The notes beneath the pieces were generated by a model, which was not told the origin of the DNA, ran no database searches, and saw only the letters and a program-made list of their open reading frames with translations. A stretch of 64,000 nucleotides of DNA, taken from NCBI GenBank assembly GCA_018238155.1, contig JABCTZ010000022.1:1-64000 (forward strand), read 5' to 3'. The position numbers were made by a program, and so were the translations under genes. The DNA is from Candidatus Heimdallarchaeota archaeon (GTDB lineage Archaea > Asgardarchaeota > Heimdallarchaeia > JABLTI01). Below, in pieces: positions 8,808-41,099 of this stretch (the first letter of the stretch is position 1; every line of letters begins with the position of its first letter).

Positions 8808-8833
8808 GAAATGAGGCCGTAGGGGAATTTGAA
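8808..8833 (-). repeat. Degenerate copy 5 (most distal) of the tRNA-Lys 3' end
   Basis: gaaatgaggccgtaggggaatttgaa versus gaaaatgagggcgtagggggatttgaa at 14016. Confidence 0.75.
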
Positions 8834-9025
8834 GTAGGATAAATAAAAAAATAGAAAAAAAAATTGGTGAAAGGATTGGAAACGAGAAGAGTGACCTTCC
8901 TACACCAGACTTCTAAACCTTTATGAAGAAGTGTGTACCTAAACTTCTATTTTTATTCATAATTTTTGTTCTAAACAGATTTATTACCTAGAAAATAAAT
9001 AGTAAATGAAAAGAATTAGAGCTAA

Positions 9026-38430: not shown

Positions 38431-41099
38431 GCAGCAGCTAATCGAGCAACGGGAACTCGTAGAGGAGAGCAGGAAACATAGTCTAAGTTGGATCGATAGC
38501 AGAAATCAATGGATTTAGGATCACCGCCATGCTCACCGCATATACCAAACTCAATATCAGGATTGACAGACTTAGCACTAGAACAAGACATAGCGAGGAG
38601 CTTACCAACACCTGCTTGATCAATAGTAACAAATGGATCTTCGTCAAAAATACCCAACTCAATATAGAGAGGAATGAATTTACCAGCATCATCTCTTGAA
38701 AAGCCAATCGAGGTCTGGGTTAAATCATTAGTTCCAGCCGATGCAAAGGAAATTCCCGCTTTAGCAAGTTCATCAGACAGGAGTGCAGCTCGTGGCAATT
38801 CTATCATTGTACCTACTTTGAATTTTTCTAGTATTACCTTTGTTTCTTTCTCTACGTCTGCTTTCACTTTCATGATCATGTCTCTGGCAATTTCGAATTC
38901 TTTTACGAAAGCTACCACTGGAATCATGATTTCAGGATAGACTGAGACACCTTCTTTCTGCACATTAGTAGCTGCTTCGAGAATGGCTCTTGCCTGCATT
39001 TCAATAAGTTCAGGAATGCCTAAACAAAGGCGTACACCACGGTAGCCAAGCATAGGATTTTGTTCGCGCAGTTTTATTAGCTCGGCAAGTAGCTTCACTT
39101 TTTCAGATTCTTTTGGTAGTTTTTCTTTCCAGATTTCTTCTCTTAGTTCGATTTCATTTGGTAAGAATTCGTGTAGTGGTGGATCGATTAGCCTGATTAT
39201 TACCGGGAATCCTTTTGCTTCTCTGAATATCCCTTCAAAGTCTTCTCTTTGGAATGGTAGTAGGTCGAAGACATGTTTTCTTCTTTCTTCTGGGTTGTCT
39301 CTTGCGAGGATCATTTTTTGAACTATTGGCAGTCTATCTTTTTCCATGAACATATGTTCTGTTCTTGTTAGCCCAATTCCTAGTGCTCCGTAATCGATTG
39401 CTACTTTTGTTTGATCTGGTGTATCAGCGTTTGCTCTTACATGGAATCCTTTTCCTTCTTTCAGTGCTATTTCGTCTGCCCATTTTAGTATTGTTTTCAT
39501 TTCTTCGGACAATTTAGATTTCTTTAGCGGTAGTTTTCCTATGTAAGCTAAAGCATCAAATCCGTCTAGTGTCATCCACTCTCCTTCTTTGATGGTTAGG
39601 CCATTCATTCCTTCTAGCGCTGTTTTTGTTATGTGTATTCCTGACACATCTCCTGCTCCTGCTATGCAAGTTGTTCCTATTTGTCTTGAAACTACTGCTG
39701 CGTGTGATGTCATTCCTCCGCGAGCGGTAATTATTCCTTCACTTGCTGCCATCCCATGGAAATCTTCTGGCGTTGTTTCTTCGCTTACGAGTATTATTTT
39801 GTTTCCTTTTTCTGCTTCCTCTTTTGCTCTATCTGCAGTGAACATTGCTATTCCTGCTGCTGCTCCTGGGCTTGCCGGTAACCCTTTCGCCAATATTTTC
39901 GTTTGTACTTCTTTCCCATCGATCATAACTGTTTTTTCTTTTGGATTTTTCCATTCTATTTGTGGGAATAGCGAATTTTCTACATCTCTTGGTGTTACTC
40001 TGCTTACTGCTGTTCTCTTGTCAATCATGCCTTCTTTCTCGAGGTCAAAAGCAATCTTTGCTGCAGCTATACCTGTTCTCTTTCCGGTTCTTGTTTGCAG
40101 AATGTAGAATACTCCTTGTTGAATTGTGAATTCAATGTCTTGAATATCAGCATAATGTTTCTCCAATTTTTCACATATTTCATCGAAGATTTTGTACATT
40201 TCAGGCATTTCATCTTTCAATTTTGAAATTGGGTTTGGTGTTCTAACCCCTGCAACGACGTCCTCTCCTTGTGCTTGAATGAGGTATTCACCGTATCTGA
40301 CATCCTTTCCATTGGCTGGGTCTCTTGTGAAAGCAACACCTGTTGCGCTTGTCTCTCCTAAATTACCATAAACCATTGTTTGAATGTTTACTGCTGTGCC
40401 AATATCGTGTGGAATTCCTTCGTGATTCCTATAATTGACTGCTCTTTGTGTGTTCCATGATGAGAATACAGCATGAATAGATGCTTCTAGTTGTTCCATT
40501 GGATCTTGTGGGAAATCTTCTCCCAGTGTGTCTTTGTATATTTTCTTGAATTCATTGACAAGTGTTTTTAGGTCATCCGTTGTTAGATCGACGTCTTCTT
40601 TGACTCCTTTCTTCTCTTTCATTTTATCGAGAGCTTCATCGAATTTCTTCTTGCCCACGCCTTTGACGACATCGCCAAACATCATAATGAATCGTCTATA
40701 AGAATCATAAGCAAATCGTTCATCTTCTGAAACTTTTGCTAATCCTTTTACAGCTTTATCATTTAAACCAAGGTTCAGAACGGTATCCATCATTCCAGGC
40801 ATGGATATTCTTGCACCACTTCTTACACTAACTAAGAGTGGGTCTTTTGGGTCACCTAATTTTTTACCCATTTGCTTTTCTAAGTATACTAAAGCTTTCT
40901 TAGTTTCATCCATCATACCCTTTGGAAAAGTATTCTTATTTTCTAGGTAAGCAATACATGTTTCTGTTGTAATCGTAAAACCAGGGGGTATTGGAATTCC
41001 TAAACCAGTCATTTCTGAAAGATTTGCACCTTTTCCTCCGAGAAGATTTTTCATTTCTTTTTTGCCTTCTTCAAAGGAGTAAACATATTTAGTAGCCAT
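38397..41099 (-). CDS. ppdK: Pyruvate, phosphate dikinase
   Basis: LLGGKGANL, LVSVRSGA..SMPGMMDT, GGMTSHAAVV, GTNDLTQ, GICGEHGG. Confidence 0.98.
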   Translation of the reverse strand: MATKYVYSFEEGKKEMKNLLGGKGANLSEMTGLGIPIPPGFTITTETCIAYLENKNTFPKGMMDETKKALVYLEKQMGKKLGDPKDPLLVSVRSGARISMPGMMDTVLNLGLNDKAVKGLAKVSEDERFAYDSYRRFIMMFGDVVKGVGKKKFDEALDKMKEKKGVKEDVDLTTDDLKTLVNEFKKIYKDTLGEDFPQDPMEQLEASIHAVFSSWNTQRAVNYRNHEGIPHDIGTAVNIQTMVYGNLGETSATGVAFTRDPANGKDVRYGEYLIQAQGEDVVAGVRTPNPISKLKDEMPEMYKIFDEICEKLEKHYADIQDIEFTIQQGVFYILQTRTGKRTGIAAAKIAFDLEKEGMIDKRTAVSRVTPRDVENSLFPQIEWKNPKEKTVMIDGKEVQTKILAKGLPASPGAAAGIAMFTADRAKEEAEKGNKIILVSEETTPEDFHGMAASEGIITARGGMTSHAAVVSRQIGTTCIAGAGDVSGIHITKTALEGMNGLTIKEGEWMTLDGFDALAYIGKLPLKKSKLSEEMKTILKWADEIALKEGKGFHVRANADTPDQTKVAIDYGALGIGLTRTEHMFMEKDRLPIVQKMILARDNPEERRKHVFDLLPFQREDFEGIFREAKGFPVIIRLIDPPLHEFLPNEIELREEIWKEKLPKESEKVKLLAELIKLREQNPMLGYRGVRLCLGIPELIEMQARAILEAATNVQKEGVSVYPEIMIPVVAFVKEFEIARDMIMKVKADVEKETKVILEKFKVGTMIELPRAALLSDELAKAGISFASAGTNDLTQTSIGFSRDDAGKFIPLYIELGIFDEDPFVTIDQAGVGKLLAMSCSSAKSVNPDIEFGICGEHGGDPKSIDFCYRSNLDYVSCSPLRVPVARLAAAQAVINNGSRK

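Follow-up and report, generated by a model that had tools for sequence, protein, structure and literature searches.

Asgard archaea carry loci for aCas1 proteins, which were reportedly catalogued computationally by Makarova et al. 2020 (CRISPR J 3:156). The passages on aCas1 in two later papers (PMC8730458, PMC10691335) describe extremely diverged Cas1 homologues that have no CRISPR array, occur in many copies and are in some cases 'possibly associated with novel MGE' (mobile genetic elements); the aCas1-TnpB kind is 'likely the transposase ... often flanked with repeats'. We analyzed a stretch of 64,000 nucleotides (the window) from Candidatus Heimdallarchaeota archaeon, namely C19:1-64000 of the source assembly (G000; 4.08 Mb, 33% G+C; other G numbers denote genomes of relatives). 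The window contains one gene for a giant aCas1 of 1212 aa and two arrays of cassettes, array 1 behind a tRNA-Lys(CUU) gene and array 2 behind ppdK. In both arrays each block is closed by another copy of the 3' end of the anchoring gene. We hold with fair confidence that both arrays are stacked successive insertions of one family of aCas1 elements, in two lineages, which carried gene ends with them. The window protein belongs to the aCas1 kind of Makarova et al. 2020 as it is described in these passages (PMC8730458, PMC10691335), and the loci have in common with them a diverged Cas1, the lack of a CRISPR array, many copies and a possible link to MGEs. The same passages make no mention of a ppdK target, surrogate ends, cargo-only arrays, a tRNA-Lys fossil or a match between clade and target. 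Pfam scans of element genes gave no TnpB.

Casposons insert at the 3' ends of tRNA genes, and in this they are like the elements described here. Casposons, especially those of family 2 (PMC4046053), are also similar in that a Cas1-family gene is the sole integrase-type gene and in the presence of a Cas4-like nuclease and HTH genes, and the best PDB sequence match of aCas1 is the casposase 6OPM. They differ in having terminal inverted repeats and a fixed duplication of 14-15 bp, whereas here neither is seen and the repeats are gene ends of 29-486 nt. They encode a family B polymerase, which Pfam did not detect in the large open reading frames (ORFs) of the window element or in the eight ORFs of a second element, on contig C6. 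The LAGLIDADG partner, always present here, is a further difference. Islands that target tRNA genes and carry replacement 3' ends have also been described (Williams 2002, as cited in PMC8813620). As in phage 21/e14 in icd and in tRNA islands, a diverged 3' end is supplied here, the native end is displaced and insertions are stacked in tandem. The direct repeats from the 3' part of the target tRNA that mark tyrosine-recombinase islands are present here as well. Elements of the phage 21/e14 type use tyrosine recombinases with a fixed crossover point. Unlike them, the islands studied here contain no tyrosine recombinase, and their exchange points vary.

Chromosomal integrons resemble the arrays in being anchored runs of cassettes of about 1 kb, promoter-less or with a single operon, rich in toxin-antitoxin (TA) pairs and, if the short-read contigs described below are not mis-joined, variable in order between strains. 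They differ in that no IntI and no attC hairpins are found here, the boundaries are copies of tRNA or ppdK ends, and the host here is archaeal. Free-standing homing endonuclease genes ('intronless homing') have in common with these elements a LAGLIDADG protein beside a conserved essential-gene target, an occupied allele that differs, and a flank that was apparently co-converted. The difference is that kilobases of cargo and a Cas1-type protein travel along here, and that cleavage is at the stage of a proposal.

The 1212-aa protein gave no match in Pfam, PADLOC, NCBIfam or a single-sequence PDB search, and the Cas1 family PF01867 misses aCas1. An exhaustive HMMER search found 44 relatives, and a profile of the C-terminal domain built from 30 homologues matched the casposase 6OPM (E = 8e-9) and Archaeoglobus Cas1 4N06 (E = 4e-4). 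The matches take in the NxxLNYgY, GxLH and DLxE motifs; in the profile alignments the conserved Glu pairs with the EG motif of 4N06, and the His and the Asp/Glu pair with GxLH and DLxE of both chains. H135 and D151 are invariant among the 30 homologues and E53 is nearly so. When the AF2 model (pLDDT 83, pTM 0.82) was compared with the PDB by Foldseek, all of the top 50 matches were Cas1 or casposase. Judged by profile and predicted fold, the protein is a genuine, very divergent Cas1 relative. The initial annotation had called it Cas1-like and the sole integrase candidate in the window. The casposase match and the fold bear out the first statement, and the second is right in that it is the only recognizable integrase-type gene within the window; a tyrosine recombinase (C19:71085-72659) lies 7 kb past the window end. 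The assembly as a whole has two PF00589 genes (C8:50428 and C19:71490), no serine recombinase (PF00239), no PF16795 and eight aCas1 genes, and neither PF00589 gene lies in any of the eight islands described below. The true cas1 of this genome is on another contig. Pfam scans of the large ORFs of the window element gave no Cas2 family, and the window has no CRISPR array, the repeats found in it being gene-end copies and one intragenic 189-bp repeat.

Array 2 consists of two blocks behind ppdK, one of 16.9 kb and one of 3.3 kb, and at the outer end of each stands a copy of the ppdK 3' end of about 320 bp. The copies are mosaic and 65-84% identical to the intact end. The features, from ppdK outward, are as follows.

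38397-41099, minus strand: intact ppdK, the target of array 2 (Pfam); its last ~107 codons are of a foreign type, as seen from tail versus body identities.
35749-38430, plus strand: 893-aa protein with two PD-(D/E)xK-like segments (Hjc-like and NERD-like); homologues adjoin ppdK in G004, G005 and G007.
33773-35140, plus strand: LAGLIDADG-HTH protein, the constant partner of aCas1 (Pfam; profile match to PI-PfuI 1dq3, E = 1e-9).
28647-33648, no single strand assigned: cargo genes for TPR, NYN-LOTUS, EEP nuclease and HEAT-CHAT proteins (Pfam, PADLOC).
24872-28510, minus strand: giant aCas1, 1212 aa, with the Cas1-like domain at residues ~860-1212 (profile and fold; ppdK clade of the tree).
22441-24885, minus strand: SF2 helicase (DEAD/Helicase_C and MZB zinc domain; Pfam).
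21824-22465, minus strand: Metallophos phosphoesterase, the end gene of the element (Pfam; homologues at element ends in C11, G004 and G005).
21489-21827, minus strand: displaced ppdK tail 2, a 112-aa ORF of the genus-typical type (Pfam PEP-utilizers_C; alignment).
18571-21269, minus strand: 3.3-kb cargo block with SBBP beta-propeller and CarboxypepD_reg proteins (Pfam, clustering).
18142-18517, minus strand: outermost displaced ppdK tail 1, with a 2-nt deletion and the same terminator as the intact gene (PEP-utilizers_C; alignment).

The gene for the 893-aa protein overlaps the ppdK tail by 34 nt and is the conserved end gene of ppdK elements. Its product is collinear with a 712-aa NERD/Hjc-like protein of tRNA-linked elements (E = 6e-4). 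The helicase gene is divided by an in-frame TAG at 23530-23532 into ORFs of 451 and 344 aa; it is a single ORF in relatives, and the TAG may be a nonsense mutation in a decaying element or a readthrough stop. The SBBP gene of the 3.3-kb block carries 189-bp tandem repeats (window 18720-19970), and the same pair of SBBP and CarboxypepD_reg genes adjoins a tRNA-Ala repeat on C11.

The element at ppdK recurs in the genus. The gene order ppdK, 893-aa gene, LAGLIDADG, ..., aCas1, helicase is repeated in G007, its ppdK-proximal part is found in G004, and G005 has tandem copies of the ppdK element with ppdK fragments between them. Extra ppdK tails, from 31 to 162 codons long, are present in 5 of the 11 genomes of the genus. 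Cargo-only cassettes, TA pairs included, stand between ppdK fragments in G010 and G005. In G008, fragments with homology to the window element's HEAT-CHAT cargo gene lie directly downstream of ppdK (G008:C235, L019 2810-3410) and no ppdK fragment is found there; G008 may have lost an element rather than never had one.

The sequences of the ppdK tails indicate where the repeats come from. PpdK proteins of G004 and G008 are 93% identical in the body and 76% in the tail, and the nucleotide identity of the G004 gene falls from about 110 nt upstream of the repeat boundary, which means that the tail was replaced. In the window the tail of the intact gene is 67-70% identical to the G005 and G008 tails, and that of displaced fragment 2 is 82% identical to them. 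The differences between the intact tail and fragment 2 fall on codon positions 1, 2 and 3 in the numbers 28, 16 and 55 (chi-square P = 6e-6). This excess at third positions shows that the tails diverged as functional alleles under purifying selection, not as decaying copies. Tail replacement and the signature of selection together indicate that the element brings its own gene end. Intact ppdK genes adjoining an element (G000, G004, G007) read ND(L/M)TQ, and NDLHQ is found in G008, in G011 and also in G005, whose contig ends 1.3 kb past ppdK.

The tRNA repeats across islands span from just before the T stem to the CCA (29-56 nt), and the ppdK repeats measure 93-486 nt. In the middle tRNA-Ala repeat on C11 an A-T pair of the stem is changed to G-C in a compensatory manner, and the trailer is that of another tRNA-Ala locus; the repeat and its trailer are thus carried along by an element. 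We also tried to tell native from carried copies by the pairing of the acceptor and T stems, and this criterion was dropped since the results were mixed: the distal copy on C6 mismatches the 5' half, and the middle copy on C11 is compensatory. As far as their sequences tell, the repeats are carried surrogate gene ends and not target or fill-in duplications of the Cas1 style. A parallel with CRISPR adaptation, in which Cas1 integration duplicates the target repeat, had been proposed in the initial annotation. It is not supported, in view of the purifying selection on the tails, their lengths of 31-162 codons, the replaced G004 tail and the compensatory change and foreign trailer of the tRNA-Ala repeat.

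Array 1 lies beyond array 2 with the same polarity, its tRNA-Lys gene standing 3984 bp from the outermost ppdK fragment. Mapping of the repeats at both sites thus upholds the earlier description of two 'duplicate the gene end' arrays of one polarity about 4 kb apart. The tRNA-Lys gene was not called by ARAGORN under default settings and was called once introns were allowed. Downstream of it are five direct copies of its last ~31-39 nt, comprising the T arm, the acceptor strand and the TCATTTTC trailer, at spacings (gene outward) of 1579, 922, 864, 868 and 976 bp. The 22-nt core of this repeat occurs elsewhere in the 4.08-Mb assembly only in one unrelated tRNA. The intervals hold one membrane-protein cassette and four TA cassettes, the latter each of about 0.9 kb with exactly one TA pair.

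14023-14158, minus strand: tRNA-Lys(CUU) with intron(s), anchor and target of array 1 (Rfam RF00005, 45.5 bits; ARAGORN with introns allowed).
13895-13999, plus strand: fossil of a Metallophos C-terminus, abutting the tRNA-Lys 3' end (tblastn).
12918-13886, plus strand: cassette 1, a 322-aa membrane protein without a Pfam family (Pfam scan).
Within 12421-12475, minus strand: tRNA-Lys 3'-end repeat copy 1, core with one mismatch (repeat search).
11602-12325, minus strand: cassette 2, RHH (ParD-like) antitoxin and PIN toxin (Pfam).
Within 11499-11553, minus strand: repeat copy 2, free of mismatches (repeat search).
10713-11418, minus strand: cassette 3, MNT nucleotidyltransferase and HEPN (Pfam).
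Within 10635-10689, minus strand: repeat copy 3 (repeat search).
9902-10650, plus strand: cassette 4, MazE/AbrB-type antitoxin and PIN (Pfam).
Within 9767-9821, minus strand: repeat copy 4 (repeat search).
9026-9662, plus strand: cassette 5, MNT and HepT (Pfam).
Within 8791-8845, minus strand: outermost, degenerate tRNA-Lys 3'-end copy, with a trailer similar to that of the empty site in G007.

The outermost degenerate copy is probably the displaced native end. The TA pair of cassette 2 has 69.6% nucleotide identity to a TA pair located between ppdK fragments in G005. Movement of this RHH-PIN cassette between the tRNA array of G000 and the ppdK array of G005 was considered and rejected, as the homology (70% of nucleotides) is confined to the operon and does not reach the cassette edges. 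Introns of tRNA-Lys differ between strains and genomes: contig X5, from a related strain, is without the 67-nt intron region (window 14053-14119), the intron is absent in G004, and it is apparently single in G007.

No aCas1 gene remains in array 1, and the fossil at 13895-13999 is what links it to the family. By tblastn it matches the Metallophos protein of C11 (E = 6e-13) and that of G004 (E = 2e-9), and it was found again at E = 1e-10. Its source is the Metallophos gene that ends elements of the ~500-aa aCas1 type and has the same convergent position beside the tRNA in G004 and C11. Because this fossil abuts tRNA-Lys, an aCas1 element must once have sat at the tRNA-Lys of the window. With the core proteins of the element as queries, tblastn detected no other fossil in the Lys array, between the two arrays or in a tRNA-Met array described below. 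In G004 a Metallophos-helicase-aCas1 module (499-aa aCas1) lies 80 bp from an intact tRNA-Lys, and in G005 a related aCas1 element stands behind a truncated tRNA-Lys. There, only the 5' half of the tRNA and the start of the intron are left beside the element (G005:C84, L053, 14100-14330), with an inverted 3'-end fragment of another tRNA just upstream, which points either to an inversion or to insertion into the intron.

A tree built from the Cas1-like domain groups the ppdK-linked proteins of G000, G005 and G007 in one clade and the Lys-linked proteins of G004 and G005 in another. The separate clades and the fossil at the Lys site lead us to view the arrays as the work of one element family with two lineages. 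G007, which carries a ppdK-type element, has an empty tRNA-Lys site, with a cytidylyltransferase gene directly behind the tRNA. The initial annotation had suggested that one integrase may serve both arrays in trans. What stands of this is that tRNA-Lys is a target of aCas1 elements (G004, G005 and the fossil); the separate clades and the empty Lys site of G007 speak against a single enzyme. The gene that follows ppdK in G008 and G005 is found 6 kb upstream of tRNA-Lys in G007. The two arrays are thus close together because ppdK and tRNA-Lys were already neighbors in the ancestor.

We examined how widely the family occurs. A hidden Markov model search of G000 with the alignment of the C-terminal domain found eight aCas1 genes, and a homologue of the LAGLIDADG-HTH protein adjoins every one of them, as it does at 17 of the 20 loci sampled in relatives. 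The GDG and DADG motifs of the partner, that is both LAGLIDADG motifs with their acidic residues, are invariant in the eight paralogues. When all tRNAs of G000 were scanned, six had additional copies of their 3' end within 40 kb. The island at tRNA-Val is a seventh; the 456-bp repeat that bounds it begins with the last 6 nt of this tRNA. Together with ppdK this gives eight repeat-bounded islands, which make up 2.4% of the genome. These islands contain five of the eight aCas1 genes, namely at tRNA-Leu(TAG), tRNA-Val, tRNA-Ala(GGC), tRNA-Ala(TGC) and ppdK (binomial P = 4e-7), in support, for this genome, of the earlier claim that Cas1-like genes are tied to gene-end arrays. The tRNA-Pro island has remnants of the LAGLIDADG and helicase genes. 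The 8-kb element on C6, at tRNA-Leu, encodes a LAGLIDADG protein, a Cas4-like nuclease, wHTH proteins, aCas1 and Orc1/Cdc6. Elements of the same subfamily occur in both orientations relative to their tRNAs. The two copies of the tRNA-Val repeat (C13:164997-165452 and 176124-176571) are 93% identical and bracket an 11-kb aCas1 element; this repeat is far longer than those at the other tRNAs and may be the start of a tandem element. A second small-cassette array was seen at tRNA-Met(CAT) (C21:101013-104126), where two cassettes, of ~1.3 and ~1.6 kb, each end in a copy of the 3' part of the tRNA. The 3'-end pattern of tRNA-Lys gave no array in 60 relatives; this is a weak test, as tRNA sequences differ between species and such repeats are often missing from metagenome-assembled genomes (MAGs).

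For comparison with related strains (90-95% identity), contigs from short reads of two other studies were aligned to the window; the runs found share at most 0.12 of the stretch, and none of them is the source sample. One 6-kb contig consists of the flank, cassette 2 and cassette 4, with cassettes 3 and 5 missing and the joints inside the 39-nt repeats. In a contig from another run cassette 2 is joined to cassette 3 in reverse order, and a third contig lacks both ppdK fragment 2 and the 306-aa gene. Unless the contigs are mis-assembled, strains gain, lose and reorder cassettes at the repeats, much as in integrons. A spike in read depth at 21116-21779 probably results from a poly-A run.

We propose the following explanation. 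The 3' ends of tRNA-Lys(CUU) and of ppdK would be attachment hot spots for a family whose core consists of aCas1, a LAGLIDADG-HTH endonuclease-like protein and the large nuclease protein with two PD-(D/E)xK-like segments, often joined by the helicase and the Metallophos phosphoesterase. An insertion would enter at the 5' edge of the last segment of the gene and bring its own replacement 3' end. The gene would thereby stay whole, and the previous end would be displaced outward as a 'repeat'. The ppdK lineage, with the giant aCas1, would be the one that is intact in the window, and the tRNA-Lys lineage, with the ~500-aa aCas1, would have left the 105-bp fossil. The cargo-only cassettes (TA pairs, transporters, surface proteins) may be non-autonomous units or remnants of decayed elements, and would be lost, gained and reordered between strains through exchange at the repeats. 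As for the catalyst of insertion, the candidates are aCas1, the LAGLIDADG partner by way of homing, or both. aCas1, probably together with the LAGLIDADG protein, may catalyze insertion, and the small cassettes would then be moved in trans. That aCas1 and LAGLIDADG form an uncharacterized site-specific insertion machine, which acts at the 3' ends of essential genes, supplies the ends and mobilizes cassettes in trans, is a tentative proposal that we would not call probable.

A number of observations weigh against stacked insertion by aCas1 elements. Among 12 elements and cassettes there were no terminal inverted repeats (chance matches of 7-12 nt, none of them terminal), and neither the tRNA nor the ppdK repeats showed a target-site duplication of fixed length. 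We know of no Cas1 enzyme that produces att-like repeats of surrogate gene ends. Reordering of cassettes needs excision, and to our knowledge Cas1 enzymes do not excise. The reordering was itself read from k=31 assemblies with joints at 39-nt repeats, where mis-joins are possible, and all genomes compared are MAGs. An ARAGORN-detectable tRNA lies within 10 kb at only 3 of the 20 aCas1 loci sampled in relatives, and vertical inheritance could account for part of the agreement between clades and targets. In another family, f2, three genomes (G040, G042 and G046) have extra ppdK fragments and no aCas1 match; a search of these genomes at loose thresholds found no aCas1, and a LAGLIDADG search gave intein-type matches only. 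Lastly, the DNA of cassette 1 has a paralogue, 82% identical over 1210 bp, at C19:68692-69879, beside the tyrosine recombinase past the window end. That recombinase, of 524 aa, belongs to a separate element (C19:61000-72700, partly past the window) that also encodes caspase-fold and FN3 proteins. The ends of this element showed no tRNA-type repeat, and no repeat like that of tRNA-Lys occurs in it.

This paralogue is one reason to consider that a tyrosine recombinase (that of C19:71085-72659, a Xer-type enzyme or one since lost) built and shuffled the tRNA-Lys array by att x att recombination and that aCas1 is cargo. The repeats do resemble tRNA att sites, excision and reinsertion would fit the changed cassette order, and the ppdK fragments in genomes without aCas1 would be accounted for. 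With only two PF00589 genes in the assembly, no serine recombinase, none of either in the eight islands and no tRNA-Lys-like repeat in the C19 recombinase element, we regard this as improbable; the fossil and the loci in G004 and G005 speak for aCas1 elements instead. Still less credit is due to the view that the one aCas1 of the window serves both sites in trans and that the repeats are target duplications of the Cas1 type. This gene is the only one of Cas1 type in the window, the more distal repeats are more degenerate, and tRNA repeats of ~30-39 nt are within the size range of CRISPR repeats as generally known. However, tRNA-Lys has its own aCas1 lineage in G004, G005 and the window fossil, and G007 combines a ppdK-type element with an empty tRNA-Lys site. 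The ppdK tails, moreover, are foreign alleles of variable length shaped by selection, the tRNA-Ala repeat has a compensatory pair change with a foreign trailer, and the helicase of the window element has an in-frame stop. That helicase, on the other hand, would suit a reading without any cassette machinery, in which the arrays are debris of a few large insertions reduced by deletion, the addictive TA pairs survive and homologous recombination reorders what is left. Cassette 1 is a decayed aCas1 element, as the fossil demonstrates, and the cassettes of G000 and G005 have the TA operon alone, not the edges, in common. The regular size of the four TA cassettes (~0.9 kb, one pair each), the recurrence of TA-only cassettes between ppdK fragments in G005 and G010, and repeats of just 31-39 nt make this explanation, too, very improbable.

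The least improbable of the alternatives is homing, though we still think it unlikely. The LAGLIDADG protein would cut the empty target, in the T arm of the tRNA or in ppdK at NDL(H/T)Q, and repair would copy the element, together with the surrogate end, from an occupied allele. The outer repeat would be the right-hand homology arm, and aCas1 would have another role. A LAGLIDADG protein with both catalytic motifs conserved is found at every locus, and an Hjc-like nuclease is a core gene. The replaced tract of G004 begins ~110 nt before the boundary, as expected of co-conversion, and the ppdK tails are mosaic and vary in length. The difference between element-adjacent ppdK genes (ND(L/M)TQ in G000, G004 and G007) and those with NDLHQ (G008, G011 and also G005) would fit a cut at these codons. 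But homing leaves unexplained an aCas1 that is equally constant and, by its conserved residues, catalytically intact. No cleavage site is known, one subfamily has elements in both orientations relative to tRNAs, and the cargo-only cassettes have no endonuclease of their own.

What the very diverse Cas1 homologues of Asgard archaea do has been an open question since their cataloguing in 2020. If aCas1 and its LAGLIDADG partner do form an insertion machine, this would be a third use of a Cas1-type enzyme beside CRISPR adaptation and casposon transposition, and the archaeal lineage closest to eukaryotes would possess integron-like cassette arrays that vary between strains. At these loci the targets are defined, one being the T-arm edge of tRNA-Lys(CUU) and the other the NDL(H/T)Q codons of ppdK, and so are the ends of the elements. 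Sister species offer both occupied and empty sites, and the partner protein is constant, so that an integration or homing assay can be designed. If the machinery also moves the cargo-only cassettes, it would be an Asgard functional analogue of integrons that stores TA and defence genes behind essential genes, and it would bear on the assembly of defence islands and the evolutionary range of Cas1 enzymes.

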